A stretch of DNA of 64,000 nt, taken from assembly GCA_039926025.1 (NCBI GenBank), contig JBDSXV010000089.1, positions 21,578 through 85,577 of the forward strand, in the 5' to 3' direction. The stretch comes from Dokdonella sp. (GTDB lineage: Bacteria; Pseudomonadota; Gammaproteobacteria; Xanthomonadales; Rhodanobacteraceae). The notes beneath the pieces are model-generated. The model saw only the letters and a list, made by a program, of their open reading frames with translations, was not told where the DNA came from and ran no database searches. The position numbers were made by a program, and so were the translations under genes. Below are positions 1 through 16,027 of this stretch, one piece after another. The stretch's first letter is position 1, and every line of letters begins with the position of its first letter.

Positions 1-225
1 GTTCTCGAACAGCAGAGTCTTCGGCAGGGTGCCGAAGTCTTTCTCGAGACGGCGCAGGATTTTCAGGACCAGAAACGAGTCGATCCCGAACTCGCGAAAC
101 GGCGTGAATGAATCGAACGGATGTTCAGCTGGATCCAGTGGCGGTTCAGCAGCTTCAAACGCTTCGAGAACTACGCCTCGCAGGTAAGTCTCAGTCAACT
201 CCTGCAGCAAATCGCGATCAACCAT
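1..225 (-). CDS. 5' end of a polyketide/non-ribosomal megasynthase gene that opens with a carrier-protein (ACP/PCP) domain. Partial; continues past the left edge.
   Basis: A reverse-strand ATG at 223-225 opens a frame with no stop down to position 1: MVDRDLLQELTETYLRGVVLEAFEAAEPPLDPAEHPFDSFTPFREFGIDSFLVLKILRRLEKDFGTLPKTLLFEN. It has a GIDS phosphopantetheine-attachment motif and an LLFE helix typical of PKS carrier domains. It is absent from the ORF track because it has no stop in the window. Confidence 0.6.
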   Translation of the reverse strand, partial: MVDRDLLQELTETYLRGVVLEAFEAAEPPLDPAEHPFDSFTPFREFGIDSFLVLKILRRLEKDFGTLPKTLLFEN

Positions 226-337
226 CTGACTCTCCCTATCAATTCCCTGTTACGACAACGCCCTGACCCGCTGGAGCGCTGAAGACGCGACTTTTGCACC
301 GGTCATCTTTTGCTAGCAACTGATGCGCTCGCTTGCG

Positions 338-369
338 AGCAAAGTGTGGAACTAGCAAAGTGTGGAACT
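338..369. repeat. Perfect tandem duplication of the 16-nt motif AGCAAAGTGTGGAACT in the divergent megasynthase/P450 promoter region; candidate regulator binding site.
   Basis: Read directly: ...gcgAGCAAAGTGTGGAACTAGCAAAGTGTGGAACTagta... It is preceded by the short palindrome gctcgcttgcgagc (327-340). Confidence 0.8.
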
Positions 370-712
370 AGTACAGCGTAAAGCTTATCCCCTGACAACC
401 TTGGGGTCAAGCGCGCAAACCGCGTGTGGATGCGGCCAGATCGACAACTCGACCCTCGGACAACAAGTGACAAAACCGCTCTGCACAAGCGCTCCAAATG
501 TGAGTTTGCATGTGGTGTTTTACACTGGCGTGACGGTTACTTCTACACGTGAGCGTGTGTCTGTTCTCGCTCCACGGTGAGAGAGCATCCGTTGTCTGGC
601 AAACGATGATGCGCCACTTCAACTACCTCGGGCGTCGGGCCGCGGAATGCCTTGCCAACGCAACATCAAATGCTAGACTATTCTGTCTTGACTTTTTGAA
701 AATTGGCGCGCA

Positions 713-2008
713 ATGGAAACTGCAACGCTTGTACCTACCCTTCCGAGCGAGATCACGGCGGCCCTCATTGATCCGAATGCGTACGCTGACCTGCAGCGCA
801 TTACCGACGCCTATACATGGCTGCGCGAGAACATGCCGCTTGGTGTGGCCCAATCGCGCGATTTCGATCCGTTCTGGGTGGTGACCAAGCACGCAGACAT
901 CCTTGAAGTCAGCAAGAACAACAAGGTTTTTCGTAACGGTGACCGTGCAACCATTTTGACCGATCAGTATACCGACGCGATGGTGCGCTACCTTCGCGAT
1001 GGCAGTCCGCACCTGGCGCGCACCCTGGCGCATATGGACGACCCGGATCACCGCAAATACCGCTCGCTGACCAGCAACTGGTTCATGGCATCCAATCTCG
1101 CGCGACGCGAAGCGGGTATTCGCGGCATCGCTCGCGAGTTCGTCGACAGCATGTTGGCACACGGCAGCGAATGCGATTTCGTCAAGGACGTCGCGGTGCA
1201 CTATCCGCTGCATGTGATCATGCAGATTCTCGGCGTACCCGTCGAAGACGAGCCGCTGATGCTGAAGCTGACGAAGCAGGTGTTCGGCAATCTCGACGAA
1301 GATCTCAACCGCACCGGCAAGGCCAAACAGACTGCCGAACAAGCCTTGATGGGACTTAGCGGCGCGGTGGAGACTTTCTTCAAATATTTCGACGTGATCA
1401 CCCGCGATCGCCGCGCGAACCCGCGCGACGACCTCGCCACCATCATCGCGAACGGCCTCATCGACGGCGAGCCAATCGGCAACTTCGAAGCGATGTCGTA
1501 TTACTCGCTGGTGGCGACCGCCGGCCACGATACGGTCAGTGCATCGACCGCTGGCGCAATTTCGGCGTTATGCGAATACCCGGAAGAGCTTGCCAAGGTG
1601 CAGGCCAATCCAGCACTGATTCCCGGTCTCGTCGAAGAAGCGATTCGCTGGACCAGTCCCGTGCGCCACTTCATGCGCACCGCCTCGGCCGACTACCGCA
1701 TGCGCGATCAGGATATCCGCGAAGGCGACTGGTTGATGCTGTGCTATTTCTCCGGGGACCGCGACGAAGAGGTGTTTGAAGATCCGTTCCGCTTCCGCAT
1801 CGATCGCACGCCGAACAAGCAACTCGCGTTCGGCTTCGGTGGCCATATGTGTCTGGGCCAGCATCTGGCTCGAATGGAAATGCGCGTGTTCTTCGAAGAA
1901 CTGTTGCCGCGCATCAAGTCACTGTCGATGGCTGGCAAAGCCGCTCACTCCAAGGCGGTATTCGTCGGCGGCCTCAAGTCGCTGCCGATACGATTCGAAG
2001 CGGCGTGA
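713..2008 (+). CDS. cytochrome P450 monooxygenase
   Basis: 431 aa. Heme-thiolate loop FGFGGHMCLGQHLA, ExxR (EEAIRW), and I-helix ATAGHDTV. Confidence 0.93.
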   Translation: METATLVPTLPSEITAALIDPNAYADLQRITDAYTWLRENMPLGVAQSRDFDPFWVVTKHADILEVSKNNKVFRNGDRATILTDQYTDAMVRYLRDGSPHLARTLAHMDDPDHRKYRSLTSNWFMASNLARREAGIRGIAREFVDSMLAHGSECDFVKDVAVHYPLHVIMQILGVPVEDEPLMLKLTKQVFGNLDEDLNRTGKAKQTAEQALMGLSGAVETFFKYFDVITRDRRANPRDDLATIIANGLIDGEPIGNFEAMSYYSLVATAGHDTVSASTAGAISALCEYPEELAKVQANPALIPGLVEEAIRWTSPVRHFMRTASADYRMRDQDIREGDWLMLCYFSGDRDEEVFEDPFRFRIDRTPNKQLAFGFGGHMCLGQHLARMEMRVFFEELLPRIKSLSMAGKAAHSKAVFVGGLKSLPIRFEAA

Positions 2009-2055
2009 TCCAACTGACGATGCGCTGCGTCGCAATCGGCGCTGCGCAACGCAGT

Positions 2056-2889
2056 TCATTCCCAGGGAAATAGCCCGTCCTGTATGTAGCGCGAGATCGC
2101 GCGCAGATTTTGTTCGTCCGTGAACACTTCCAAGTTGCCCGCGACTGCCGCCGCGCGGTATGCCGCCAACGGCGATCCGAGTTTCGCGGCGTAGCTCTTG
2201 TAACGCGCCAGTGCCGTGCGCGACAAACGCCGCAGACGCACTACATGGCGGCGCAACAGCGGTTCGCCCTGCGCTTCGCAGGCATCGACCAGACCCCAGT
2301 CCAATGCAATTTTCGCGGAGATCGTCTGCGCGTTCAAAGTGAGGTAATGCGCTTTCTGAAAGCCGATGCGGCGCATGAGGAACGGCAGCACACATGCCGG
2401 ATACAGGCCGAACAGTAACTCGGACAAACTGAACTGGGCACATTCGTCGGCCAATACGATATCACTGGCGCCGATGAAACCCAGGCCGCCGGCGTTGGCT
2501 TTGCCTCGCACGTAGGAAATCACGATGAACGGCCCGGTGGCGAGTCTGAGCCAAAGGTCGTACATCGGTCCAGGCCCTTCATATGCTGCATGCGCCGGCG
2601 CGCAGCCAGTGGTCACTTCCTTGAAATCAGCGCCGAAGCAGAACACGTCCGACAAGCCGCTGAGCACAACGACGCTGATCGATGGTTCGCATGCGTCGAG
2701 CACGTGAGTGCATTCAGCGACGAGTTGTGCGTTGATGGCGTTGTTCGCGTCAGGACGGTGGAATTGCAGATAGCAGACCGAATCCTCGAAGCGTACTTTG
2801 ATGGTTTCCAAATGCGCGAAGTCCGGGCTTGGCTCGGCTATCGACGTAGTCATGCGATGAAACTCCTGCTCGTGTGAGTATCGCGGCAT
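2056..2889 (-). CDS. enoyl-CoA hydratase/isomerase (crotonase) family protein, resembling polyketide beta-branching ECH1 (PksH/CurE type)
   Basis: 277 aa. Crotonase oxyanion region SGLSDVFCFGADFKE, and a C-terminal ...GLFPWE tail as in PKS-associated ECH1 proteins. It starts 8 nt after the KS stop. An alternative start at 2853 (MTTSIAE) has a GGAG upstream. Confidence 0.8.
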   Translation of the reverse strand: MPRYSHEQEFHRMTTSIAEPSPDFAHLETIKVRFEDSVCYLQFHRPDANNAINAQLVAECTHVLDACEPSISVVVLSGLSDVFCFGADFKEVTTGCAPAHAAYEGPGPMYDLWLRLATGPFIVISYVRGKANAGGLGFIGASDIVLADECAQFSLSELLFGLYPACVLPFLMRRIGFQKAHYLTLNAQTISAKIALDWGLVDACEAQGEPLLRRHVVRLRRLSRTALARYKSYAAKLGSPLAAYRAAAVAGNLEVFTDEQNLRAISRYIQDGLFPWE

Positions 2890-2896
2890 CGCCGCC

Positions 2897-4117
2897 TCAG
2901 GGACAACGTTGCCAGCACAGCGCGGTATTCATGCCACCGAATCCCATGCTCAAGGTGAGTGCGTTTTCGATCTGGTGCGAAGTGCCCGCGGGGTCCACCC
3001 AGCGCAGGTATGGATCGATCGGATTGTCGAGGTTGCGCGTCGGGTGCAGGCGGCCTGCGCGCATTTGCAGCAGAGTGGCGATGATCTCCACTGCGCCAGC
3101 GGCGCTGAGACCATGCCCGACCAGCGACTTGGTCGCGTTGAGATGGACATGGCCCAAGCCGCATTCGCGCAACGCGCCCAATTCGGTCTCGTCACCGACG
3201 ATAGACCCGGTGCCGTGAGGATTGACATAGTCGATCGCCGCGGCAGCGCAGCCAGAGTGCGCAAGCGCGGCGCGAATCGCCCGCGTTTCGCCTTGCAACG
3301 ACGGATCGGGATTGCGGTTGCCGTCCATCGCCAGTCCCCATCCCGCCAGCGCGGCATATGGCTTGGCCGCGCGACGTCGACTGGATTCCAGAGATTCGAT
3401 CACAAGGGCGCCGGAACATTCGCCATAGATGAAACCGTCATGATCGCGGTCGAACGGACGACAAGCCAGTTCTGGCGTTGCGGCGAAGCGGTCCGAGCCC
3501 ATCGCACCAATTGCGCGAAAGCCCTGGCATTCCCAGTACGACAGATCCATCAATGCGCCGACGGCAATGCACGCATCGACTTGTCCTGACGACACCGCCT
3601 GCGCCGCTTGGATGACCGCAAGTTGACCGCTCGCGGACGCGCCACCGACGGTATAGGCCAACCCCTGTATGCCAAAATGCGCCGTGCAGAATCCGCACAG
3701 ATCCGAATCCATGAACGACAAGGCGTAGGTTGGCCGCAGGAACGCGATGCGTTCGCGGTAACTGTCATGCACATTGACCAGCTCCCGCTGTTGCACATTG
3801 GAACCGCCGACGATCATGCCTACGCGATGCGGATCGAGCTGGCCGAGGTCTGCCTCGTCCCAGGCCTCCTGCACAACCGTCAATGCCGTCGTCGCCGATA
3901 GCGAGGCGGTACGCAGAACCTGCTTCGGAATACTGTCCGGCACCACGAGTGCGGCGATTTCTGCGCCCAGGACAGGTGAGTCCTCGCGGCGGCGGCCGGG
4001 ACGTTGCATCACGCCAAACGCGCTGCTCCCAGCCAACAGGGCGGCCGTGAAGGGCTGCTTGCCTTGCCCGATGGCCGACACCACGCCCATACCGGTTACA
4101 ACCAGGTCCGTAGCCAT
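2897..4117 (-). CDS. beta-ketoacyl synthase family protein with active-site Cys replaced by Ser (KS-S type, predicted decarboxylase rather than condensing enzyme)
   Basis: 406 aa. The position of the DTACSSS Cys reads TVGGASASGQ (Ser), while both catalytic His motifs are kept (NPHGTGS, KSLVGHGLSAAG). GGAG lies 7 nt upstream of the ATG. Confidence 0.85.
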   Translation of the reverse strand: MATDLVVTGMGVVSAIGQGKQPFTAALLAGSSAFGVMQRPGRRREDSPVLGAEIAALVVPDSIPKQVLRTASLSATTALTVVQEAWDEADLGQLDPHRVGMIVGGSNVQQRELVNVHDSYRERIAFLRPTYALSFMDSDLCGFCTAHFGIQGLAYTVGGASASGQLAVIQAAQAVSSGQVDACIAVGALMDLSYWECQGFRAIGAMGSDRFAATPELACRPFDRDHDGFIYGECSGALVIESLESSRRRAAKPYAALAGWGLAMDGNRNPDPSLQGETRAIRAALAHSGCAAAAIDYVNPHGTGSIVGDETELGALRECGLGHVHLNATKSLVGHGLSAAGAVEIIATLLQMRAGRLHPTRNLDNPIDPYLRWVDPAGTSHQIENALTLSMGFGGMNTALCWQRCP

Positions 4118-4604
4118 CCATGCGCTCCGTCAATAGCTTTGTCGCGAAGGTCGTATGACCCACAGCCCCGCAGTGTGCGGGGAAGCCTGCTACATGCGCA
4201 AGAAGAGTGAAACGTCGATTCTGCGCATCGCGAAGATCGATCTATTCGCGCACGACATGCGCGGTGCAGCCGATCTAATGGGCCGTCGAAGACGGATACG
4301 GCCGCTCGATATCGACTGCTGATGTCAGGATCAGCGAAACTGGAACTGAGAGTCACGAAAAAAAAATAGGATTTGTGCGGTTGATGCGTTGGTCAATTCC
4401 CTATCCTGTTGGCGACGAACCGACCGGGGTTTTTGCACGCGGCTCTGCCAGCTCTCTAAAAGCCTGTCGAGAAGTTCGGTCCTATCCAGACGGCGATAGC
4501 CTGTTTCTATCGCCGGCGGAATGGTGGTCGAGTGAGGTCGAGTAATATCTGCTCAAACCATGCGACACCGGACGCACGTTTGCAAAGGTCGGTGACGGAT
4601 CCCA

Positions 4605-4912
4605 TCATTGGCCGATATCGCCGAGTCGAATCAGGTTGTAGCCGGCGAAGGTCCATATCGTCCATTCGCGAACGGCACTCAGCCCACCCGCGACACCGCG
4701 CAATCCTCTGATCGTCTTGATCCAGCTAAAACCTTGCTAGATGGGTTTACGCACCTGCTCGCTCATCGCGTACCCGTTGCTGCGCACACTGCGTCCGTCG
4801 ATCGTGCTGCGCTGGCCGTTGATGTTGCGGGCGACGTGCGGGACGGGTGCGACCCTGTTTGAGTGCCGCTCCAAGTCATGTGTGTCGAAGCCCTTGTCCG
4901 CGCCAAGCGTCC
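4605..4912 (-). pseudogene. IS5-family (DDE_Tnp_1 type) transposase relic: C-terminal part only, with an in-frame stop
   Basis: The reverse frame reads ...GADKGFDTHDL...IDGRSVRSNGYAMSEQVRKPI*QGFSWIKTIRGLRGVAGGLSAVREWTIWTFAGYNLIRLGDIGQ*. It has the ADKGxD DDE box and the GFxWIKT...AYNLIRL tail typical of IS5-group transposases. It is 5'-truncated at the kinase stop, and a TAG sits where homologues have Glu. Confidence 0.7.
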
Positions 4913-4914
4913 TG

Positions 4915-6273
4915 CTAGGTGGCCTTCGACAACGGCACGCACAATCGCGCCACAGCGCCCGCCGCGTCCGCCCGGTTTTCCAGTGTGACCTGGCCGTGAT
5001 GCCTCGCGGCGATTTTGCGGCACAGTACCAGGCCGACACCAGCACCACCGGGCTTGGTTGTGTAGAACGGCACGAAAAGATTGTCGGAATTCCGGATACC
5101 GGCGCCGTTATCGATGATCTCGAACTCGGCGTTGCCGTCGACGACACGGCAACCGAAGCGCACCGGCGCCTCATTGCTGTCGTTGGCCTCGACCGCGTTC
5201 TTGACTAGGTTGATCAACGCCTGCTCCAGATGCACCGGATCGCCGAACAGTTTTGCTTCTGGCTCGTCGCCGACGCGCTCAACAACGCCACCGGGAAAGA
5301 TGGCCAATACCCGCTGCATCAGCCGCGAAGCCGGGAACACGACTTTCTGCGGCTCAGGCAGGCGCGCGATGCGCGCATAGACCGAAATGAATTCCTTGAG
5401 CCCTCTCGCACGCTGCGAGATCACATCTAATCCATCGCGCATGACACTCATATGTTGCGCGGCGTCGCCGCGGGCGATGACGTTTTCCAAGGTCTGACAC
5501 AGCGACATGATCGGTGTCAGGGAATTGTTGACCTCATGGCTGATCACGCGGATTAATCGTTGCCATACCAGGATTTCTTCTTCCGCCAACGCCATGCGTA
5601 GATCGACGATGAATACGATGCGGCTGGGTCTACCCTGACGCCGATAGAACTGCTGACTGACTTGCCAACGGCTCTCGGCGCCGGGAAAGCGGAAATCTAC
5701 GACGCGTGGTTCGGCCGAGAACGGAATCGCGGCGAGCGGCGTGGCTGCGAAGTCGGTCCCGATCAATTTGTCTGCCGGCGTGCGCAATAGTTGCGCGGCG
5801 AGTGGATTGACTAGACGGATACGGTCGTAGGCATCGCAGGCGACGATCGCGACACTGATCTGGTCGACGACCTTTTGCAGCATACCCAGCAACTCTTGCT
5901 CGGTATGCCGGCCGGCCTCGAGATCGCCGATCAGCATGTTGAGCTGGCGATACAGATCGGCCAGTTCCCCCGATTCACGCGCGTGCGCCGCCTTGATGCT
6001 GTAGTCCTGCGCGCGCGCCGCTTCAACGAGATTGCTCAGTGCGCGTAAGCGCCGCATCAGGTTGGTGCGGACCGTTACGGCGACGATGGCGATCCACGCG
6101 ATGCAGAGCAACGCCAGACCCTCCGCCAGCCTCTTCGACAACGCATCTTCGACCGCTAGCAAGCACAACAAAGCCGGAGGAATAGCGCAACTCAAGATCC
6201 ACAGAAACAGGTTCACGCTCGCCGGCAGCCTCCGCCGCGGCGGTGCGCTGCTCGAACGCGCGCCCTGGATCAC
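4915..6273 (-). CDS. sensor histidine kinase (NtrY/AtoS-like; membrane-anchored, PAS plus HisKA plus HATPase)
   Basis: 452 aa. N-terminal hydrophobic segments, H-box ISHEVNNSLTPIMS, N-box NLVKNAVEA, G-boxes DNGAGI and GGAGVGL. It has a 4-nt ATGA overlap with the upstream regulator gene. Confidence 0.85.
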   Translation of the reverse strand: MIQGARSSSAPPRRRLPASVNLFLWILSCAIPPALLCLLAVEDALSKRLAEGLALLCIAWIAIVAVTVRTNLMRRLRALSNLVEAARAQDYSIKAAHARESGELADLYRQLNMLIGDLEAGRHTEQELLGMLQKVVDQISVAIVACDAYDRIRLVNPLAAQLLRTPADKLIGTDFAATPLAAIPFSAEPRVVDFRFPGAESRWQVSQQFYRRQGRPSRIVFIVDLRMALAEEEILVWQRLIRVISHEVNNSLTPIMSLCQTLENVIARGDAAQHMSVMRDGLDVISQRARGLKEFISVYARIARLPEPQKVVFPASRLMQRVLAIFPGGVVERVGDEPEAKLFGDPVHLEQALINLVKNAVEANDSNEAPVRFGCRVVDGNAEFEIIDNGAGIRNSDNLFVPFYTTKPGGAGVGLVLCRKIAARHHGQVTLENRADAAGAVARLCVPLSKAT

Positions 6274-7634
6274 ATCGGTTCCCGCTTGCCAAGGCGCCGG
6301 TACAGCGCCGAACGACTGATACCGAGCTCTTTCGCTGCGACCGCTGCATTGTCGTCGTGCCGTACCAGCGAACGCCGAATCAGTGCCAACTCGGCATGAC
6401 GCAAGGTCATGCCATCGAACTCATCGTCGACTGAAGGGGCCGGCGTCGTTCGCGTATCCAGCTGCAGATCCTGCACGCCGATCTGCGCCTGTTGCGCCAA
6501 CAGCACCGAACGTTCGACCACGTGCTGCAGTTCGCGGATATTGCCTGGCCACGCGTAGTTTTCCAGCGCTGCGCGCGCACCGGCGGAAAACGTGCGCGCG
6601 TGCGAACTGTAGTGCTGGCAGGCGCGGGCCAGAAAATTTTCTGCAAGCAGCAATATGTCTTCACGACGCTGGCGCAACGCCGGCACATTCAAGGTCACGC
6701 CGTTCAGTCGATAAAGCAGATCCTGGCGGAAATTTCGCTCCGCCACGAGACTGTCGAGATTGGCATTGGTCGCGGAAATGAAGCGCACGCTCGCGCGCTT
6801 GGTGAACGAGCTGCCGAGCTTTTCGTAGCTTCGCTCTTCCAGCAGTCGCAGGATCTTGGCTTGCTGGGTCAATGGCAGATTGGCGATTTCGTCGAAGAAC
6901 AGCGTGCCTTGATCAGCCAGTTCGACGCGGCCCACTCGCTCGCTCTTGGCATCGGTATAGGCCCCTTTGGTGTGGCCGAACATTTCGCTTTCGAAGGTCG
7001 ATTCCGAGATCGCACCCATGTTGACGCTGATGAAGGGCGCGGTCGCGCGGTTGGAATGCCGATGGACGTAGCTCGCCAGCAGGCCTTTGCCGCTGCCGTT
7101 CTCGCCGGTGATCAAGATGGGTATGGAGCTTTGCGCGACACGGCGCGCCATCGACAGCAACTGATCCATTTCCACCGAGCGCGAGAGCAATTCGACGCCA
7201 CTGCCCTGCTGACGCAACAGCGCATTCTCCGCACTGAGCTTGCGTTCGCGGCCCTGCGCTGCGCGCAGCGCAAGCTGGGTGCGGATGGTCGACAGCAATC
7301 GGTTGTTCTCCCAGGGCTTCTCGACGAAATCCGCTGCGCCGAGCTGCATCGCTTCGACCGCGATACCGATCGTGCCCCAACCGGTCATCGCGATCACGGG
7401 TAGGTCTTCACCCCCCTCGCGCAAGGCGGCGATCAGTGCCAGCCCTTCCTTGCCCGAGGTCGTGTCTTCCACATAGTTGAGGTCCACCAGTGCCAGCTGA
7501 AAGGCCTCGCGTCGGGTCGCCGCGACCGCGTCAGCCGGCGAGCGACAGGCTGTACAAGCCATTCCTTCGCTTTGGAGCAGAACGCGCAGCGCAGTCAGAA
7601 CGCTTTCGTCGTCATCGACTATCAGTATTGCCAT
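6270..7634 (-). CDS. sigma54-dependent response regulator (NtrC family: REC + AAA+ + Fis-type HTH)
   Basis: The likely start is MAILIVDDDESV (ATG at 7632-7634; the ORF track extends to 7703). Walker A GENGSGKG; the sigma54-contact loop reads GAYTDA (canonical GAFTGA); C-terminal HTH AAKELGISRSALYRRL. Confidence 0.9.
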   Translation of the reverse strand: MAILIVDDDESVLTALRVLLQSEGMACTACRSPADAVAATRREAFQLALVDLNYVEDTTSGKEGLALIAALREGGEDLPVIAMTGWGTIGIAVEAMQLGAADFVEKPWENNRLLSTIRTQLALRAAQGRERKLSAENALLRQQGSGVELLSRSVEMDQLLSMARRVAQSSIPILITGENGSGKGLLASYVHRHSNRATAPFISVNMGAISESTFESEMFGHTKGAYTDAKSERVGRVELADQGTLFFDEIANLPLTQQAKILRLLEERSYEKLGSSFTKRASVRFISATNANLDSLVAERNFRQDLLYRLNGVTLNVPALRQRREDILLLAENFLARACQHYSSHARTFSAGARAALENYAWPGNIRELQHVVERSVLLAQQAQIGVQDLQLDTRTTPAPSVDDEFDGMTLRHAELALIRRSLVRHDDNAAVAAKELGISRSALYRRLGKREPM

Positions 7635-8059
7635 CGCCTGCTTTCTGCCGCTTCGTTTGCACCATCTGTCGCCGTGAACGATCTGTCCATCTGCGCGGCG
7701 CAACTCGAACGCCTGCGATCGCCCCGAGTATAGCAGCGGCCCGACAGCACGCTGGACGGCTTAACCGCAACGTTCCGTCCCCTGGCGGATTATCCCGCGT
7801 GCACGCAACGCTGCTGTGTCGAGCGGATGCGCGCCTCGGTCGAATGCCCTGACACGCTGACAATTTCACCGCGGCACGCTGGCGAATCTGACGAGCGAAC
7901 TCGGAGCTACCCAGCGCCGGACAGTTCCATCCATGCGGCGGCGGAACGTACGCCGAAATAAGGCCGATGCGCGGCCGATAGAAGGTGATAATCGTCTTCG
8001 CGTCGAGTACGCGATGATGCGTTGACGTGGATACCCGACACGGCAATGATGCGCCGGAT

Positions 8060-9046
8060 TCAGGCGCGCCCAAGCTGCTGCGGCCAGCCGGCTTCAAGTG
8101 CGTTGAAGCGCGTCTGATCGTTGCCGAACGGGCTCAGTATTGCGTGGATCGATGGCTTGCGTTCGGTCGGCAACAGATAACGCAGAAACGTGGCCAGGGT
8201 GCCGGACGGACCGAGATCGATGTAGTTGCAGACATGCTCGCGCTCGAGCATTTCCACAGCGGCGCCAAATCGAATCGGCCTGCGTACCGCCTGCCAGAAG
8301 AAACCCTCAGGCAAAGCATCGAGTACCGCAGCCTGAGCGCAGCAGACCAGCGGCATCGTGCCACCGTCTGTGCCCAAAGATCGCGCGAACGAATCGAACG
8401 GTGTATGCGCCTCGTCGATCCAGCGCGAATGGAATGCGAAGGCCACCGGCAACCGCTGGAACGCGATCTGGCTCGCGTTGAGGCGTTGTTCGACCTCGAC
8501 CGCACGGTCGTGCGTCGTCGAAACCACGAAATGCGAGGCGAAATTAACCCCCGCGAGTTCGGCCAATTCGCTCAGCCGTTCACGTTCGAAAACCGCGGTG
8601 TCGGCTAGCACGGCAATTAGCGTTCCTGGCTCGCAACAGGCTTCCAGCGCGGCGGCTTGTTGGATCACCGCAGCCAAAGCCTGCTCCGCATCGATGAAAC
8701 CGGCCATCGTGGCTGCGGCGAATGATCCCAGACTCGCACCTAGGCACAGATCCGGCTTGATGCCGGCAGCGATCAGCGTCTGCGCCAGCGCGTATTCGAC
8801 CATGAAGATCGCTGGATGGGTGAGTTCCAACGCATCGAACGCTGCGGACTGTTGGTTCGCATCTGCGTACAACACCTCGATCACCGATCGCCCTGCAAGC
8901 TCGCGCACGATCGCGTCCAGACAAGTCATTTCGGTGCGGAACAGCGCGTTGTGGTCAAACAGGGCGCGTCCCATCTGGAAATGGTGCGACCCCTGCCCGG
9001 AAAACAGGAATACCGTTTTCTTCACCAAAGATCCTCGTACGTGCAC
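8060..9046 (-). CDS. free-standing acyltransferase (malonyl-CoA:ACP transacylase family, trans-AT candidate)
   Basis: 328 aa. FLFSGQGS, nucleophile elbow GASLGS (usual GHSLG), and an FAFHS motif of the malonyl-type xAFHS class. It starts 13 nt after the ALDH stop. Confidence 0.85.
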   Translation of the reverse strand: MHVRGSLVKKTVFLFSGQGSHHFQMGRALFDHNALFRTEMTCLDAIVRELAGRSVIEVLYADANQQSAAFDALELTHPAIFMVEYALAQTLIAAGIKPDLCLGASLGSFAAATMAGFIDAEQALAAVIQQAAALEACCEPGTLIAVLADTAVFERERLSELAELAGVNFASHFVVSTTHDRAVEVEQRLNASQIAFQRLPVAFAFHSRWIDEAHTPFDSFARSLGTDGGTMPLVCCAQAAVLDALPEGFFWQAVRRPIRFGAAVEMLEREHVCNYIDLGPSGTLATFLRYLLPTERKPSIHAILSPFGNDQTRFNALEAGWPQQLGRA

Positions 9047-9059
9047 GAACGGTTCGCGA

Positions 9060-10562
9060 TTACAGCTTCAGCGCGACGGATTTCAGCTCAGTGAACGACT
9101 CCACGCCGACACGCCCGAACTCGCGCCCCCAGCCCGACTCGCGCCAGCCGCCGAACGGCATGTTGGGATCGACGACGTGATAACAATTGACCCAGACAGT
9201 GCCGGCATGGATCGCACGCGCGGCGCGGTGCGCGTTCTTCACGTCGCGCGACCAGACGCCTGCGGCGAGGCCGTAGCGCGTGCCGTTGGCCTGGGCAACC
9301 ACATCGGCGAAATTCTTGAACGGGACTGCACATACGACCGGGCCGAAGATTTCCTCCTGCACCACGCGCATGCTGGGATCAGTTTTGGCCAGCAGCGTCG
9401 GTTCGACAAAATAACCCGGGCGTTCAACGCGGCGTCCACCGACGACAATTTCCGCTCCGGCGCGCACGCCTTCATCCACATAGCTGTCGACGCGCTCGCG
9501 CTGCTTGGCCGAAACAACTGGTCCCAGCTGGGTTTCCGGGTCGAAGGGATCGCCAATCACGTAATTCGACATGGCCTCGCTGAGGCCTGCGATCACTGTC
9601 TCGTAGACGGAGTCCTGCACGTAGAGTCGCGTGCCCGCATAGCAGACTTGGCCCGCGTTGAAAAACGCGGCCGCGGCCGCGCCGGCGATGGCTTGTTCCA
9701 AGTCCGCATCGGCGAAGATGATGTTGGGTGACTTGCCGCCGAGTTCGACCGTAACGCGTTTGAAGTCCACGGCACACGTCCGCACGATCTCACGGCCAAC
9801 TGCAGTGGAGCCGGTAAACGAAACCTTGTCCACACCCGGATGACGCACCAGGGCTGCGCCGGCTTCGCTCCCCAGTCCGGTCAAAATCTGCAGCACACCT
9901 GGTGGAAAGCCCGCTTCCAGCGCCAATTCCCCCAGTCGCAGTGCGGTCAGCGGCGTCAGCTCCGAAGGTTTCAGCACAATGACGCAGCCGGCCGCGAGCG
10001 CTGCCGACAATTTCAGCGCAGCCTGCAACAGAGGGAAATTCCACGGCACGATGCCCGCTACAACGCCAATCGGCTGACGCAGACTGAAGGCTTGGAACGG
10101 TGTCGGCGCGCAGGCCAGATCGAAGGTCTCGCCGGTGAGCTTGGTTGCCCAGCCGGCGTTGTAGCGGATCGCATCGACGGTGAATGGCACATCCAGCATG
10201 CGCGTGACCATCAGCGGCTTGCCTACGTCCAGCGATTCCAGCTCGGCAAATTCAGTCGTGTATCGCTCCAATAGATCGGCCAATTTGAACAGCAAGCGCG
10301 CGCGCGTCGACGGCGGCTGCGTCGACCAACGCCGGAACGCGGTGCGCGCCGCGGTGACTGACAGTTCGACGTCAGCAGCATCGGCGGAGGCGACATGGGT
10401 GATCACCTCACCCTGCGCCGGATCTTCAACAGGAATGCGCGCGCCAGACAGAGCGTCGGTCCAGCGGTTGTTGATCAGCAGCTGTTTGGGACGCTGCAGG
10501 AACTCAGTGCTGGCGGCTGACAGGGCCGGACGGTCCTGCGTAATTGTAGCGATTCCGCTCAT
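9060..10562 (-). CDS. NAD(P)-dependent aldehyde dehydrogenase
   Basis: 500 aa. FTGSTAVG, ELGGKSP (catalytic Glu), and FFNAGQVCYAGTR (catalytic Cys). Confidence 0.92.
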   Translation of the reverse strand: MSGIATITQDRPALSAASTEFLQRPKQLLINNRWTDALSGARIPVEDPAQGEVITHVASADAADVELSVTAARTAFRRWSTQPPSTRARLLFKLADLLERYTTEFAELESLDVGKPLMVTRMLDVPFTVDAIRYNAGWATKLTGETFDLACAPTPFQAFSLRQPIGVVAGIVPWNFPLLQAALKLSAALAAGCVIVLKPSELTPLTALRLGELALEAGFPPGVLQILTGLGSEAGAALVRHPGVDKVSFTGSTAVGREIVRTCAVDFKRVTVELGGKSPNIIFADADLEQAIAGAAAAAFFNAGQVCYAGTRLYVQDSVYETVIAGLSEAMSNYVIGDPFDPETQLGPVVSAKQRERVDSYVDEGVRAGAEIVVGGRRVERPGYFVEPTLLAKTDPSMRVVQEEIFGPVVCAVPFKNFADVVAQANGTRYGLAAGVWSRDVKNAHRAARAIHAGTVWVNCYHVVDPNMPFGGWRESGWGREFGRVGVESFTELKSVALKL

Positions 10563-10583
10563 GGTTATTCACTTATGGAGAGG

Positions 10584-12011
10584 TCAAAGTTCATGTCTCT
10601 TCCAGCGCCCGCGCAGGAACAGCACCGCGGCCAACCCGGTCAGCAGGCCGAATGCGATAGGCACTGAGATGTAGACGCCTATCGCACCGTACTTCAGCAC
10701 CACTGCAAGAAGCCATGCCAGCGGCACCTGCGCAACCCAGAAGCAGAAGAAATTCAGCCTTGCCGCTGTCCAGGTATCGCCGGCACCATTGAACGCTGCC
10801 TGCAGGCAAAGGCCCACCGCATAGTAGGGAAACGCGATAGCGACAATGCGCAGCGCATTCGATGCTTCCACGATCACCAGCGGATCGGTGCTGAACAGCA
10901 TGACGATCTTTGGCGCCAAGGCGAACAACAGCACGCCGATGGAACCGAGGAAAAACATGTTGTAGCGCGCCGCGATCCACACTGCGGCTGCGGCGCGTTC
11001 CGGATTGCCGGCACCGAGGTTCTGCCCGACCAAGGTCGCACCGGCATTGGCCACGCCCAGTGCCGGCATCAGGAAAAACTGCACCACGCGCAGCGCGATC
11101 GCGCATCCGGCCAGTGCCGCGATACCTGACCGCGCCGCGATGCTGAAAAGGCCGATGCCGCTGGTCGTACTGACGACCAGCTGCGCAATGCCGCTGGACG
11201 CGGTGACGGTGATCAGGCGTATCTCGGCCGCTGCCGGCCTGAGATGGCGCAAACCCACGCGGATCACCGACCGCGCACCACACAGCTGCCACAACTGGTA
11301 AATCATGCCGATTCCACGGCTGATCGTGGTGGCGAGGGCAGCGCCCGTGACCCCCATTTCGGGCAGCGTTCCCCAGCCAAAGATCAAACAAGGCGCCAGA
11401 ACCATGTTGATGCCATTGGCGATCCACAACGCGCGCATCGCGACAGCCGGATGTCCGACGCCGCGAAAGATCGCATTGATCAAGTACATCAGGAACACTG
11501 TGAGGTTACCGGCGAACATCACGCGCGCGAAACCTGTGCCCAGCTCGGCTACGCGGTCACCACCGAGAACGCGCAGGACATCCGGTGCGAAATAGAACAA
11601 CACCATGCCGACGACTGTCGAGGCAACGATACCGGTCACGATCACCTGCCCGGCGACCTGAGCCGCCGCCTGGGGTGAGCCGTGGCGACCGACATAGCGC
11701 GCAACGATAGCCGTCGCGGCGAAGCTCATGCCGATCGCTACCGCATAGATCAAGCTCATCACCGCTTCGGTGAGACCAACGACCGCTACCGCTTCGCTGC
11801 CCAGGCGCGACACCCAAAAAGTGTCGACCACGGCGAACACCGATTCGGCGAACATCTCCAACACCATCGGCACCGCCAACATCAGTACGGCTCGATTGAG
11901 CGGTTCGGTGGTGTAGTCATGGCGCCTGCCCTTCAGCGCAAGTATTACGATTCGCCACCAGGACGCAGCCGGATCTATCGCATCGGACAACATGATTCCC
12001 CTCTTGTGCAA
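10584..12011 (-). CDS. MATE family efflux transporter
   Basis: 475 aa, polytopic (about 12 hydrophobic segments). NorM/DinF-like N-terminus ...LNRAVLMLAVPMVLEMFAESVFAVVDTFWVSRLG. An alternative start lies at 11993. Confidence 0.88.
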   Translation of the reverse strand: MHKRGIMLSDAIDPAASWWRIVILALKGRRHDYTTEPLNRAVLMLAVPMVLEMFAESVFAVVDTFWVSRLGSEAVAVVGLTEAVMSLIYAVAIGMSFAATAIVARYVGRHGSPQAAAQVAGQVIVTGIVASTVVGMVLFYFAPDVLRVLGGDRVAELGTGFARVMFAGNLTVFLMYLINAIFRGVGHPAVAMRALWIANGINMVLAPCLIFGWGTLPEMGVTGAALATTISRGIGMIYQLWQLCGARSVIRVGLRHLRPAAAEIRLITVTASSGIAQLVVSTTSGIGLFSIAARSGIAALAGCAIALRVVQFFLMPALGVANAGATLVGQNLGAGNPERAAAAVWIAARYNMFFLGSIGVLLFALAPKIVMLFSTDPLVIVEASNALRIVAIAFPYYAVGLCLQAAFNGAGDTWTAARLNFFCFWVAQVPLAWLLAVVLKYGAIGVYISVPIAFGLLTGLAAVLFLRGRWKRHEL

Positions 12012-12132
12012 TGCGACTCAAACGATGGATGACCCTGCCGAGGCAGTCAGTCAGATGCGGCGCGGCGCGAGCACCCGCAGCCGCAGATTCACACATGTCA
12101 ACGGATCTCACCGCAACGGTGGAGTGTATCGT

Positions 12133-12700
12133 CTATTCCCGACAATTTGACGCGGCGAGTAGGTATGACTTCGAGCGACGGCAAATCAACATCCTGTAGT
12201 CGATGGTGGGCTCGACTTTACGCAGCGACATGACGACTCCTTTGGAACCTTCAATCGCCATGACGTACCCGGACGAATCCCTGTCTTGCGGGCCTCGTCG
12301 CGATCGGCGAAGCGTTCGTGATGCGTGGGCTCCTTCTTGATCGAAGCGCAGAAGCTTTCCATCATCTATCGCCCCGGTTTCCGTGGAAGCTGTTTGGTTC
12401 AAGTCGGGCGAGCATCAGGCTGATCGCGCCATCGGTTTGCTTCCAACCGTCAGCGGACCGCCGCAACCAATCTCCGACCTGCATCGCGTTTTCGCCGTTC
12501 CAGACGAAGGCGGCATAGTCCACACAATAGAGTTGATCGATGTCCGTCGGAATTCTGGCGAAGGCCGGGTAGCGATCAGCCAACGTGTAACGGCGGAAAT
12601 CCGTAGAGTCGATGACACTCAGCAAATGCAGCGCGCGAAAAAGCACACGGCAAAGTCCCGACTTGGCAGAAAGGCGCGCGGCAATTCATCCAGGTCCACC
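12133..12700 (-). pseudogene. IS3-family transposase (integrase-core, OrfB) relic, frameshifted and truncated
   Basis: Two reverse frames read ...VGDWLRRSADGWKQTDGAISLMLARLEPNSFHGNRGDR (compare VGWsMs...HSDRGSQY) and ...ESFCASIKKEPTHHERFADRDEARKTGI... (compare ESFFxxLKxExxxxxxFxTRxEAR). There is no intact ORF. Confidence 0.6.
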
Positions 12701-12816
12701 ACTCCTGATTCGTGGTGCCAGGATGCCGACCTCCCGGCATACGCTGACAACCGGGACTGCTACGAATCCATGCAGAAGGAAGTGATGACCTCCATCATCC
12801 CTGAAACTCGGTTTCG

Positions 12817-13605
12817 TTAGACGGCAATTTCGAGTGACGTGGCGATCGCTTCGCCAACAACCCTCACTGTCGCGCGCAAATCCTGATTCAGGAAAAAATG
12901 TTCGCCTGGCAACCACTCGCAACGGAACTTCCCTCGCGTCTGTTCGCGCCAAGCCTGCGCTCCCTCCTTGCTCACCAGTTGGTCGCCTTGGCCGTTCAAG
13001 CAAAAAACATCGCACTCGAGCGGCCCGCGCTCGACATACGCATATGCATCCAACGCGGTGAAATCCGAGCGAAGCTGCGGCATGAAGACGCTGAGCAGGT
13101 CACGGTCAGCCAGCACCGCGCGCGGCGTACCGTTGTAACGCTCGAGCAAGTCGATGAAGGCGTCATCCGACAACTGTTGAATCGGAACGGGTTCGCGGCG
13201 CCGCCGCAGCCGCGGCGCCGCGTGGCCGGAGGCGACCAGCAACGCCGGTGCACCTTCGCTGCGCAGGAGCTGCGCCACTTCAAATGCGACTAGCGCACCC
13301 ATGCTGTGACCCCAGAAAACGGCCGGCCGCTCACCCAACCTGGGGCGCAGCGCGTTCGCGGCTGCACTGGCCATGCTCGCGATATCCGTCATGGCCGGCA
13401 TGTGGCGAGCGGATTCGCGTCCGGGCAGTCGCAACACGTAAGGCACGACAAAGCGCGGAAGTGCGCGGCATAAGCCGAAGAAACTCGCTGCTCCGGCCCC
13501 TGCACAGGGAAAACAGAATACATCGGCGCGCCGGTCACGGCCCGATGCAGGCTCTTCAGGCGAGCAAAACCAAGTCTCGAATGGGCTTTTTGCCGTGATT
13601 TGCAT
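12817..13605 (-). CDS. type II thioesterase (alpha/beta hydrolase, GrsT/editing TE type)
   Basis: The likely start is MQITAKS (codon 38 of the 12817..13716 ORF). VFCFPCAGAGAASF N-terminal motif and GHSMGALVAFEVA nucleophile elbow. Confidence 0.85.
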   Translation of the reverse strand: MQITAKSPFETWFCSPEEPASGRDRRADVFCFPCAGAGAASFFGLCRALPRFVVPYVLRLPGRESARHMPAMTDIASMASAAANALRPRLGERPAVFWGHSMGALVAFEVAQLLRSEGAPALLVASGHAAPRLRRRREPVPIQQLSDDAFIDLLERYNGTPRAVLADRDLLSVFMPQLRSDFTALDAYAYVERGPLECDVFCLNGQGDQLVSKEGAQAWREQTRGKFRCEWLPGEHFFLNQDLRATVRVVGEAIATSLEIAV

Positions 13606-13994
13606 GATGTTGCTGTCCGACGTTGCTGTATGACTGCGGCAGTAATACGTGACGCCAGCCCTCGTCGCACGACGGCACCGACATTGGATGACGCGGACAT
13701 CAGCGATCACGATCAATGCCAGCTAAGCCTGATGCCGGTTCAGACGGGCTTTCATGTCCCGACTGTATTCCAAGAGCGAGCGTCCGTTTGCGGCATTGCG
13801 CACACGCCCATCACCTTCGGGTTTTAGCAGTATCGCTTCTTCAGAGCCTCGAGATCCATTCAAACACCTCGGCGAACGTTTGTTACATCGACCATCATCC
13901 ACGTCTGCGCCCGCTATTGTCACCGGCAGCGGGGAAATTGTTCAAGCCTTCCCCAGGAAAAAACTCCCGCTGGCGAAGTCAGTCATAGGCTTCA

Positions 13995-14805
13995 TCAATC
14001 ATATTTTCCCGACGCGGATGTGCAGCAACTCGGGAGGTCCGCGTACGTGTCGGTCGAGTCGTGTGTGCCGGCGGATCATCCGATCCGCATGCGGCGCTTG
14101 ATAGTCGATGCGATCCTGAGCGAGCTCGACGGCGCGCTAGTCTCGCGCTACGCAGCCGCCGGCTTTGAGCCGATTCCGCCCGCTCATTTGCACGGCTGCT
14201 ACGCGCGTCGCTGCTGCAGGTAGTGTAGAGCGTGTGCAGCAAACGGCTGCTGATTGAACAGTTGAACTAGAACCCGCGGTTCCGCTGATTCGTTGGTTTG
14301 AACATCGGCGATCCGGTGGACGATCACTCAACGTTCTCGCTCATTGGCTAGCGCCTGTTCGATGCGTAGACGGCACAGTGCATCTTCGAACACACCGTGT
14401 TGCTGACGCGCCTGCAGGATCCAGTCAGCGACGAGTACGTCCTGGTGGACGGCACGTTGCTGGCAGCGTGGGTCTCGCAGCATCGACGTGCGCCATGCTC
14501 CGGCGGACGCGACGGCGCTGGCCTCACCTCGGATCGACGTTGCGTGCCGGCAAGGGCTACGACACGCGCGACTTCGCCGCGGCGCTTGATCAGCGGAGCA
14601 TCAAGTCGCTCATCGCCGGACACACGAGAGCGCAACGCGACGGCTGACGCAATCACCGGTTCGAAGCGAGGAGTGGAACCTGGTTTGCCTGGGGATAAAT
14701 CTGCGCCGGATGCAACGGTTGAGGTGGAATCCGGTGTAGACCGGGTGCACGGCGTCGAAATGCCGACTCACCCGATCAGACGGCTGAAAAAAAAACCACG
14801 GTAGT
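13995..14805 (+). pseudogene. IS5/IS1182-group transposase relic (N-terminal DUF772-like region plus degenerate DDE region), with multiple stops and frameshifts
   Basis: Frames read ...VPADHPIRMRRLIVDAILSELDGALVSRYAAAGFEPIPPAHL..., ...LLIEQLN*NPRFR*FVGL...DDHSTFS..., ...VSDEYVLVDGTLLAAWVSQH..., ...GKGYDTRDF... These are the conserved blocks of this transposase group, spread over three frames. Confidence 0.7.
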
Positions 14806-14987
14806 CGGCCAATCGAAACCGCCCAATAAACGTCAACGAACAACCGACTCGTCCGCGCTGCCGTACTTGACGACTGTGCAAAAAGTTCTGCCGCTCAAAC
14901 TCCCAGAGAGACGCAGGAAACATACGCCGATTGTTAGCAGGTCGGTGTCAAATATTGGCTGCCCGCGGCAGAGCCGTAGGGACTTCC

Positions 14988-15776
14988 TTATTGGTCTATG
15001 CCGATGCGCAACCGCGGACGGCGGATCAGCACCTCGCCCATCCCCACGCTCGGGATGCACGGGAAATAACGAACGCTACCCGGGTTCGCGGCGGATCGCG
15101 GGGCACAGACCGCCATCATGTGCCGCTCGCCTAGAGGCCGTAGCTCAAAATGCCAGCGCTCCGGCGCATCCTCCAGCGCCGGATCAATGTCGATCCTTAC
15201 GCGTGCGCCGATGTCAAAGGAAAAGCGCTCGAGCGGGATCGACAGTCCCATTCCTCGCGCTTTGATGTACGACTCCTTGAGCGTCCATAGTTCGAAGAAG
15301 CGCCGACGCTGATGCTCTGGCGGCTGCGCGCGCAGCCCAGCCAGTTCGGTCGCGGTAAAGTAGCGGTCCGCGATCGAGAGGGTCTCGCCGGGACGGTCGG
15401 TTTCCTCCACGTCGACCCCAACGTCCTCGTCCAGCGACACCGCGCAGGCAACCAAGCTGCGCGCGTTCGAGAGATTGAATCGCAACCGCATCGCGCTGGC
15501 CGGCGCAGCGATCTCAGGCCGGCCGTAGGCGTTCACGACGAAGCGCCAGTCGCGGGGATCGACATCAGCGTAGCGCGAGAGCGTCAGCCTGCACAGTGCG
15601 CGCGTGACTAGATATTCGTGGCGAAGGTAGTCGAAGCGGTAACGCGCCATGCGCTCGGCTTCCTCGTCCGTGAGCAGAGCGCAGAAGTCGTCCTCCAGGC
15701 TCGCAGCGGGGCAATCCTTGATCCAGCAGTACCAGACGTCCACCTGTCCGGGTTGCAGTGTCGATTCGATGCGCAT
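14988..15776 (-). CDS. 4'-phosphopantetheinyl transferase, Sfp type
   Basis: 262 aa. NAYGRPEI, FNLSNA, and WTLKESYIKARG (W/F-x-x-KE-S/A motif). Confidence 0.9.
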   Translation of the reverse strand: MRIESTLQPGQVDVWYCWIKDCPAASLEDDFCALLTDEEAERMARYRFDYLRHEYLVTRALCRLTLSRYADVDPRDWRFVVNAYGRPEIAAPASAMRLRFNLSNARSLVACAVSLDEDVGVDVEETDRPGETLSIADRYFTATELAGLRAQPPEHQRRRFFELWTLKESYIKARGMGLSIPLERFSFDIGARVRIDIDPALEDAPERWHFELRPLGERHMMAVCAPRSAANPGSVRYFPCIPSVGMGEVLIRRPRLRIGIDQ

Positions 15777-16027
15777 ACGGCCGTCTCCATCTCATCAGGA
15801 AGATCGAGACGAACGCTGCGCGATCTTGGAGCAGTATCTTCTCATTCAGTCCTGTCCATGCCGGATATCGGGCCGGTGCGGTGCGCGCCGTCCGGGTGAC
15901 CTGTTTGAGAGATCCATCGGCTGGGGCCTCTCAGCCCCTCGACGATCTTTCGGCGATTCCATAACAAGAGCCGAAAGAACAAGGTCTACCACGCTTTGCA
16001 CGAAGTGGGGCCGCGTACCGTACCATC

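Follow-up and report, generated by a model that had tools for sequence, protein, structure and literature searches.

A trans-acyltransferase polyketide locus of Dokdonella sp. with a leinamycin-type DUF-SH didomain and a partial β-branching cassette

The DNA stretch considered here (the window) spans 64 kb of a Dokdonella sp. contig (JBDSXV010000089.1 of assembly GCA_039926025.1, positions 21,578 to 85,577), and this work deals with its first part, positions 1-15776, which holds one end of a polyketide gene cluster; the gene content was established from the listing of open reading frames (ORFs) together with Pfam and NCBIfam scans. A preliminary description had read this part as a trans-acyltransferase (trans-AT) polyketide locus that continues leftward of position 1, carries a partial β-branching cassette devoid of 3-hydroxy-3-methylglutaryl synthase (HMGS) and of the second enoyl-CoA hydratase (ECH2), and is scarred by insertion sequences (ISs). 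Its gene inventory is borne out by the scans, with two identities corrected, and so are the leftward continuation, by extension of the contig, and the incomplete cassette, by tblastn and Pfam. The locus belongs to a known but uncharacterized class, the non-leinamycin DUF-SH trans-AT polyketide synthases (PKSs), which carry a didomain made of DUF2156 and a pyridoxal phosphate (PLP)-dependent lyase (SH).

Related loci were collected with the ketosynthase (KS) of the window that has serine in place of the active-site cysteine, KS(S); the scan, with one genome per species, returned 80 loci. The best matches come from Tahibacter aquaticus DSM 21667 (91%, L006), a Lysobacterales metagenome-assembled genome (MAG; 89%, L005), a Tahibacter MAG (88%, L007) and T. 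caeni (84%, L008); a Lysobacteraceae MAG (L009) and a proteobacterial MAG (L019) are also referred to below.

Carrier protein, megasynthases and β-branching enzymes

The first gene of the window (1-225, reverse strand) had been taken for the start of a megasynthase; its translation corresponds instead to the first 75 codons of a separate, free-standing acyl carrier protein (ACP) of 110 aa, an orthologue of the ACP that relatives carry in fusion with the DUF-SH didomain. Extension of the contig to the left, which the preliminary description had proposed, gave the rest of this ACP and an AT-less megasynthase. The extension relied on L001, a Logan contig retrieved by an exact-protein look-up of the cytochrome P450 (P450), which reaches 9.3 kb left of position 1 and contains the full ACP gene at 9181-9513; the Logan contig stops 321 nt beyond the megasynthase. 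The C-terminal part of the megasynthase was taken from L087, a metagenome contig with 83-93% protein identity, which also shows a second megasynthase.

The megasynthase gene encodes 4559 aa and starts 30 nt after the free ACP gene. A single in-frame stop parts the two (L001 9151-9183, L006 ~14280, L005 and L008), with two stops in L005; this arrangement is kept in the window lineage, T. aquaticus, T. caeni and the Lysobacterales MAG, and relatives further away carry a fused ACP. The stop has the look of an ancient nonsense split preserved since then. As for domain content, the first 3050 residues (L001) read LPG_synthase_C (DUF2156), Beta_elim_lyase (PLP), KS, dehydratase (DH), ketoreductase (KR), ACP and KS, and L087 supplies the remainder, KR-ACP-KS-ACP, without a thioesterase (TE), so that the overall order is DUF2156-SH(PLP lyase)-KS-DH-KR-ACP-KS-KR-ACP-KS-ACP. 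A C-terminal TE, inferred at one point from Caballeronia udeis, was rejected because the L087 megasynthase ends in KS-ACP.

The left-hand megasynthase had been singled out as the place to look for integral AT domains; none was seen, and Acyl_transf_1 had no match in the 3050 aa of L001, in a further 1500 aa or in 1829 aa of L087, that is, over ~6,400 residues. Each KS is followed by RhiE-like and CurL-like linkers. KS modules devoid of AT and accompanied by linker remnants define an AT-less modular PKS, and the system is therefore of the trans-AT type.

The second megasynthase (L087 16451-21937) begins at the base right after the stop of the first one and opens with an AprA_N/adapter-like (methyltransferase-dimerization-like) region, followed by GNAT, ACP, KS and DH; this start is a GNAT loading module. 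The AprA_N-like opening before GNAT and ACP recalls the curacin/apratoxin-type loading module. With a loading module of this kind lying downstream of the DUF-SH megasynthase, the gene order is not colinear with the biosynthesis. The idea that the cluster ends after the first megasynthase, suggested by long reverse-strand ORFs of L087 without Pfam match, was rejected: these ORFs are antisense shadows of the forward GNAT-loading PKS ORF, which runs off the end of the locus.

Regarding the didomain, PF09924 covers residues 77-344 of the megasynthase and PF01212 residues 481-689, and the pair directly follows the ACP. The DUF part resembles the aminoacyl-transferase domain of MprF/LpiA. The best PDB match of the PLP part is 9cen, deposited only as "Polyketide Synthase Protein" (E = 5.5e-63), which outscores tyrosine phenol-lyase; the Schiff-base lysine is retained, with SLAKDFG aligned to SLSKDFG of 9cen and to SGKKD of tyrosine phenol-lyase. 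In the leinamycin PKS, LnmJ has the order ...CP-CP-DUF2156-PLP3-hydrolase, where CP stands for the carrier protein, and proteins of the CP-DUF2156-PLP3-KS... type are reported in Lysobacter and Kordia (PMC3870968, Table 2). A catalogue of 109 DUF-SH PKSs distinguishes four sequence-similarity groups, three of which are non-leinamycin with products unknown, and a T. aquaticus protein is among the representatives of its DUF-SH alignment (Meng et al. 2021, PMC8479088). The N-terminal didomain is thus identified as a leinamycin-type DUF-SH, because PF09924 and PF01212 follow an ACP as in LnmJ, the Schiff-base lysine is present and the T. aquaticus orthologue is already catalogued. The terminal module of leinamycin proper (KS-ACP-ACP-DUF-SH-TE, in an eight-module hybrid of PKS and non-ribosomal peptide synthetase, NRPS) is not matched by the locus, which is filed as non-leinamycin because its DUF-SH is N-terminal, is preceded by one ACP, is followed by three KS modules and has no TE.

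The claim that the locus has no obvious known counterpart accordingly falls at the family level, as the class of Meng et al. accommodates it, and stands at the product level, where no member is characterized; a literature search found no product described for a Gram-negative DUF-SH cluster. Related to the didomain, a stand-alone ACP-DUF-SH protein of 759 aa occurs in Paraburkholderia sp. (L003/L004 10001-12280). Its neighbours are IS elements and RND efflux genes, and KS genes are absent within 10 kb of it. The protein could be an orphan relic or a trans-acting sulfur toolkit.

Two genes of the β-branching type lie next to the P450 gene on the reverse strand. In the KS(S) at 2897-4117 (PksF/BatB class), GGASASG replaces the active-site cysteine, and both histidines are kept (HGTGS and KSLVGH); the protein passes NF005490 with 626 bits against a cutoff of 445 and is predicted to be the malonyl-ACP decarboxylase of β-branching cassettes. 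The crotonase at 2056-2889 (PksH/BatD/LnmF class, Pfam ECH_1), which the gene call of the sequence collection places at 2056-2853, has PksH (3hp0) as its best PDB match (E = 7e-93) and passes NF005498 (370 bits, cutoff 250); these matches identify it as a true ECH1, the predicted dehydratase of HMG-type ACP adducts. With respect to the batumin cluster, KS(S) and BatB share 70% identity, and ECH1 and BatD share 62%.

Accessory, regulatory and export genes

The P450 gene (713-2008, forward strand; Pfam p450) encodes a probable tailoring oxygenase, and its position is kept in L005, L006, L008, L009, L019 and L087-L089. It is separated from the ACP gene by a divergent intergenic region (226-712), which contains a sigma70-like promoter of the P450 gene at 652-679 (forward strand), TTGCCA-16-TAGACT with TG, in a block conserved in five genomes. 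The ACP-proximal part of this region shows no conservation toward T. aquaticus: ahead of the ACP/megasynthase operon, the window has an exact 16-nt tandem duplication, AGCAAAGTGTGGAACT, at 338-369, in place of which L006, L005 and L008 hold a conserved TTGACC...TATCCA block. The repeat may be a binding site for a regulator or the footprint of a rearrangement.

The protein encoded at 8060-9046 (reverse strand) had been described as a free acyltransferase, and its identity is the second one to be corrected. Its best structural match is the acyl hydrolase PksD (8avz, E = 6e-74), with FabD at 88 bits; it has GASLG instead of GHSLG, and a glutamine at the position of Gln124 in PksD and Arg117 in FabD. 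Acyl hydrolases are diagnosed by the absence of the malonyl-binding arginine, replaced by glutamine or histidine, and by G(A/S/V)SL in place of GHSL (PMC11775670). The protein shares with PksD/PedC the G(A/S/V)SL motif, the glutamine for arginine, FHS and the aligned C-terminal extension, features that mark it as a PksD/PedC-type, proofreading trans-acting acyl hydrolase and not an AT for extender loading. No malonyl-specific AT (GHSxGE, Arg117, xFHS) occurs in the 64 kb plus the 9 kb to the left, where the only AT homologue is this hydrolase-type protein. Acidobacterial relatives hold both the hydrolase and a true AT with GHSLGE and arginine (L002 and L016 for the latter), and the loci of the window and of T. 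aquaticus show the hydrolase alone; the extender-loading AT may be encoded beyond the left end of this sequence, or its task may fall to FabD.

Upstream of the hydrolase gene, on the same strand, are the genes for an NAD(P)-dependent aldehyde dehydrogenase (ALDH, 9060-10562; Pfam Aldedh, E = 4e-175; StyD-like in NCBIfam, below cutoff) and for a MATE efflux transporter (10584-12011; Pfam MatE, TIGR00797 above cutoff). The packing is tight, the gaps between the ALDH gene and its MATE and hydrolase neighbours being 13 and 21 nt. A hairpin resembling a terminator, GGCCGCGCATCGGCC, with TTATTT behind it, was noted at 7962-7976 (reverse strand), ~85 nt past the end of the hydrolase gene; it fits a MATE-ALDH-hydrolase operon separate from the two-component genes. 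Assignment of the P450 and MATE proteins to SolI and SolL of solanimycin was rejected, given scores of 147 and 217 bits against cutoffs of 850 and 780, and both are treated as generic.

The two-component genes, both on the reverse strand, overlap by 4 nt and encode a PAS sensor histidine kinase (HK, 4915-6273; Pfam HATPase_c, PAS_8 and HisKA) and a sigma54-dependent response regulator of the NtrC/AtoC class (RR, 6270-7703; Pfam Response_reg, Sigma54_activat and HTH_8). Their presence in the middle of the cluster had been regarded as an oddity of rearrangement; the pair is instead native, because five related genomes have it in the same position and two more have it near the KS gene.

The last two genes of the cluster, again on the reverse strand, encode a thioesterase (12817-13716) and an Sfp/HetI-type phosphopantetheinyl transferase (PPTase, 14988-15776; Pfam ACPS and AASDHPPT_N, HetI-like in NCBIfam). 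The thioesterase (Pfam Thioesterase, E = 1e-41) has RifR as its best PDB match (E = 8e-38), followed by RedJ, SrfD and YbtT, and its start is likely the ATG at 13608; with the serine of GxSxG (GHSMG) and the C-terminal histidine (GEHFF) both in place, it classifies as a type II, presumably editing, enzyme. The PPTase is 45% identical to that of T. aquaticus and 62% identical to that of L007. Because the genes rightward of the PPTase are housekeeping or unrelated (guaA, guaB, TRAP transport, MoeA, Der, BamB, RodZ, RlmN and others, from 16 to 64 kb), the cluster is taken to end on the right with the PPTase gene. Just beyond it, at 15649-17912, three ORFs (218-409 aa) without Pfam match were noted.

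Conservation and insertion sequence remnants

The window is collinear with T. aquaticus at 82-85% nucleotide identity (blastn). In the T. aquaticus draft assembly, the cluster reaches up to ~14.5 kb from the beginning of contig NZ_SNZH01000005.1. A tblastn matrix found the full order MATE-ALDH-AT-RR-HK-KS(S)-ECH1-(P450)-ACP-DUF-SH in L006, ALDH through DUF-SH in L005, and RR/HK-KS(S)-ECH1-P450-ACP-DUF-SH in L008, L009 and L019. On a wider scale, KS(S)/ECH1 stand next to ACP-DUF-SH in ~30 genomes of several phyla. Toward T. aquaticus, DUF-SH is ~83% identical and the accessory proteins 76-92%, with the hydrolase as the least conserved of the syntenic genes (76%). The ratio of nonsynonymous to synonymous substitution rates (dN/dS) of all shared genes is 0.06-0.16 at dS 0.6-0.85, with no stops; the calculation included DUF-SH, KS1 and DH-KR of the megasynthase. 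Single values are 0.06 for the P450 (92% amino acid identity), 0.10 for the HK (87%), 0.11 for the RR (89%) and 0.09 for the ALDH (90%); MATE is 88% identical.

The G+C content is 61% in the window and 65-69% in the homologous loci of Tahibacter spp. and of the nearest metagenome relatives, a gap found despite 76-93% protein identity (window versus L005-L008 and L087-L089); the organism, a Tahibacter-like member of the Lysobacterales, is a lower-GC relative.

As for the IS relics, three had been placed at the operon junctions; two of them have statistical support, as fragments of IS5-family transposases, and the third does not. The first supported remnant (4740-4925, reverse strand) matches IS5-family transposases with E = 4e-13 in a tblastn search against plasmids and the NCBIfam IS5 model with E = 9e-4; the second (14020-14223, forward strand), inside the proposed relic 13995-14805, matches transposases of this family with E = 5e-8. 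Within 12133-12700, the only signal was an NCBIfam IS3 match of 27 residues at 12186-12365 (reverse strand, E = 0.026), without any tblastn match, and 14378-14647 was likewise not supported by tblastn against plasmids. Pfam had no match on any putative relic, and the NCBIfam matches are sub-threshold. The IS5 fragments are ~60 residues each and have no convincing terminal repeats, which qualifies them as remnants and not as elements.

Both supported remnants fall in segments that are absent from T. aquaticus by blastn, 4132-4927 and ~12169-15228. The former measures 796 nt in the window and 196 nt in T. aquaticus. The latter, of ~3 kb, contains the thioesterase gene; its last bases enter the 3' end of the PPTase gene, so the island proper is ~12169-15000, with a G+C of 0.595, and in T. 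aquaticus the PPTase gene is ~300 nt from the MATE gene. The thioesterase has no homologue in any related locus, and it is specific to this lineage and was probably delivered by IS activity. Overall, IS5-family insertions remodelled two intergenic junctions and inactivated no gene; they are old and tolerated, because they are intergenic and themselves decayed.

These data bear on the proposal that the cluster is decaying, namely that the locus is a non-functional remnant broken by insertion sequences. The two verified IS5 remnants, the lineage-specific island, the poorly conserved promoter region before the ACP/megasynthase operon, the essential parts that are not in view and the degraded state of the same locus in the Tahibacter MAG are all compatible with it. 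However, the eleven genes and the 4559-aa megasynthase are all open, the gene order has been kept over a dS of ~0.7, and the IS remnants spare the coding sequences. Long-standing decay is excluded because dN/dS is 0.06-0.16 and the shared genes have no stops, so that a non-functional remnant is very improbable. In the Tahibacter MAG (L007 9219-11848, NZ_JAVTWC010000093.1), residues 1-123 of ALDH run into frameshifted fragments of the C-terminal part of the kinase, KS(S) is intact, ECH1 is truncated and spread over three frames, and no DUF-SH lies downstream; an error in the MAG assembly is possible.

β-Branching, proposed sulfur incorporation and related systems

To our knowledge, DUF-SH is the only known route by which an assembly line equips a polyketide directly with a thiol or hydropersulfide. 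Its function has been shown so far in the actinobacterial leinamycin family alone, whose compounds are antitumour agents. In that family, HMGS and ECH1 install a carboxylated unsaturated β-branch with no trans-acting ECH2, DUF is proposed to add thiocysteine, and SH cleaves the C-S bond to yield the hydropersulfide (Meng et al. 2021; 2024 weishanmycin study); the carboxylated branch is kept as a Michael acceptor (PMC7618002).

On this basis, positions 1-15776 rather probably hold the accessory genes, the regulators and the exporter of an intact trans-AT cluster of the non-leinamycin DUF-SH type that operates by the DUF-SH sulfur model. According to this model, a chain from the other megasynthase(s) would be handed to the free ACP; KS(S) would convert malonyl-ACP into acetyl-ACP, an HMGS encoded elsewhere would add the acetyl-ACP unit to the β-keto group, and ECH1 would dehydrate the adduct into a carboxylated α,β-unsaturated branch. 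With no ECH2 step, DUF would add (thio)cysteine to this Michael acceptor as in the leinamycin family, and the PLP-dependent SH would cleave the C-S bond to give a thiol or hydropersulfide, after which the remaining modules would elongate the chain. The P450 and ALDH would tailor the product, the PksD-type hydrolase and the RifR-type thioesterase would clear stalled carriers, the PPTase would prime the carriers, MATE would export the product, and the sigma54 two-component pair would control expression.

Part of what had appeared odd finds its place here. The lack of a second ECH is expected because the megasynthase begins with a leinamycin-type DUF-SH, whose logic uses ECH1 without ECH2 and keeps the carboxylated branch; neither HMGS nor ECH2 occurs in all 64 kb (tblastn, Pfam), and tblastn with BatE found no ECH2 in the window or its close relatives. 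With BatC, no HMGS was found in the window, L001, L005, L006, L008, L009, L019 or L087. Its location elsewhere in the cluster is the most likely answer, because KS(S) and ECH1 are close to the canonical cassette and pass the equivalog cutoffs. The apparently missing parts are thus read as an artefact of the window edge plus a known variant of the β-branching logic.

Several observations weigh against this model. No HMGS, donor ACP or malonyl-specific AT occurs in the 64-kb window and the 9.3 kb to its left; in particular there is no dedicated donor ACP, the sole free ACP being the orthologue of the DUF-SH-fused one. Of the 20 loci in the KS clade of the window (KS identity of at least 67%), 18 likewise have no HMGS within 10 kb of KS(S), and in ~50 DUF-SH loci the 10 kb after the second KS contain none either. 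A weaker test was a search with BatC over a set of 5.8 billion proteins: no Tahibacter protein is among the best 120 of 3740 homologues, a top set that is at least 73% identical throughout, and the result is uninformative for Tahibacter because it covers these 120 alone. The free ACP has no tryptophan (Trp) flag, a feature that acceptor ACPs of the leinamycin family also lack (PMC7618002), and the link from the ECH1 product to the DUF domain is borrowed by analogy from that family. In L087 the megasynthase closes with KS-ACP and no TE follows, which makes chain release and module order tentative in this model. Finally, a scan for sigma54 promoters (TGGCAC-N5-TTGCW, up to 2 mismatches) gave 29 matches versus 36.6 expected, with no convincing site in the relevant intergenic regions.

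The distribution of HMGS in the clade suggests a different solution, along the lines of the non-canonical use of the parts that the preliminary description gave as its second option, in which KS(S) and ECH1 of Tahibacter, other Lysobacterales and Acidobacteriota would build the sulfur unit together with ACP-DUF-SH and without any HMGS. In the 18 loci mentioned above, ECH1 directly follows KS, and neither HMGS nor ECH2 lies within 10 kb (the exceptions are P. batumici and a Terriglobales MAG, L015), and HMGS adjoins KS(S)/ECH1 in ~55 more distant loci, which is nearly all of them (batumin/kalimantacin included); acidobacterial relatives group the hydrolase, a malonyl-AT, the PPTase and an ACP-containing protein with no HMGS, and the BatC search, within its limit, points the same way. 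The identities to BatB and BatD and the equivalog scores argue against it, as do the continuation of the cluster beyond the readable sequence and the lack of a candidate substrate for ECH1 if HMGS is not involved; moreover, one clade member, L015, carries HMGS together with homologues of LnmK and LnmL. An HMGS-independent route is therefore regarded as distinctly unlikely.

The two acidobacterial arrangements deserve description. In L015, positions 4131-6750 encode an LnmK-like protein (PF18238, E = 1e-70), a small ACP and an LnmM-like HMGS, a set for leinamycin-style propionyl branching in an acidobacterial, non-leinamycin cluster; KS(S)-ECH1 and ACP-DUF-SH come 3 kb downstream of it. In L016, a protein of ~265 aa is encoded directly after ECH1 (12236-13036) and consists of an AcpP-like ACP and ~185 residues without Pfam or PDB match; it could be a candidate donor ACP with its own decarboxylase. 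The ~185-residue tail is GNAT-like by eye, and ORFs of the same size and position occur in L015 (12267-13076) and L012 (12186-12980). This type of protein is absent from the window lineage, in which the P450 gene occupies that place.

A further alternative stems from the Lysobacter-type DUF-SH loci, in which a megasynthase ending in KS is followed by HMGS-ECH1-ECH2-KS(S)-AT and then by ACP-DUF-SH. This order fits a split module whose ACP would be the branching acceptor. The presence of ECH2, though, implies that at least one branch is decarboxylated and not used by DUF-SH; thus, KS(S) and ECH1 might serve a β-branch at another module, for instance on the second megasynthase, and DUF-SH might act on an ordinary enoyl-ACP produced by KR/DH in a split upstream module, the co-location reflecting shared regulation and not chemistry. 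That trans-AT modules are often split between proteins, that the upstream partner has not been seen and that SH chemistry is said to be transferable from one scaffold to another (PMC8479088) all lend this some plausibility. Yet KS(S)/ECH1 are repeatedly and tightly adjacent to ACP-DUF-SH across phyla, in the Lysobacter-type loci the cassette and ACP-DUF-SH are immediately preceded by a megasynthase whose last domain is a bare KS, and the leinamycin family gives a precedent for the coupling of ECH1 and DUF-SH (PMC7618002). A separate branch is deemed unlikely, less so than an HMGS-independent route, and the model in which the ECH1 product feeds DUF-SH is retained.

Among known systems, the closest is T. 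aquaticus DSM 21667, with the class of Meng et al.: it has in common with the locus one ACP ahead of DUF2156-SH, KS modules behind the didomain and the lack of a TE after it; the window lineage adds the two segments with IS5 remnants and the RifR-like thioesterase, and has a different PPTase (45%). The leinamycin family shares the DUF-SH didomain, the trans-AT PKS, ECH1 without a trans-acting ECH2 and P450 tailoring, but differs in several respects: in the window lineage, DUF-SH is N-terminal with three KS modules after it, the single ACP is separate, no terminal TE or NRPS part is in view, KS(S) takes the place of LnmK, and the host is Gram-negative. BatA-E of kalimantacin/batumin (Pseudomonas batumici) is the closest canonical cassette found; there, HMGS (BatC) is encoded between the KS(S) and ECH1 genes, ECH2 (BatE) is present and DUF-SH is missing, whereas the window has neither HMGS nor ECH2. 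As for the megasynthase, that of Caballeronia udeis (FCOK02000016.1) is collinear at 53-61% identity as ACP-DUF-SH-KS-DH-KR-ACP / KS-KR / ACP-KS-ACP, and it is also non-colinear with the biosynthesis, the ACP-DUF-SH...TE genes coming first, followed by the starter genes and a 5772-aa PKS. It differs in being split over three genes, in its fused ACP, in the TE at its end and in having no KS(S), ECH1, P450 or two-component genes adjacent.

In conclusion, the locus represents a conserved Gram-negative and acidobacterial version of the DUF-SH systems, with ~30 relatives found and a stable accessory set made of KS(S), ECH1, a proofreading hydrolase, a P450 and an exporter, to which the Lysobacterales add a sigma54 two-component regulator. 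If true, the HMGS-independent route would be a new logic for the functionalization of the β-position in a family of clusters that has no product yet. The system allows asking whether the ECH1 product is the substrate of DUF outside the leinamycin family, and, as T. aquaticus DSM 21667 belongs to a culturable genus, it provides a concrete and accessible orphan cluster predicted to make a new sulfur-containing polyketide.

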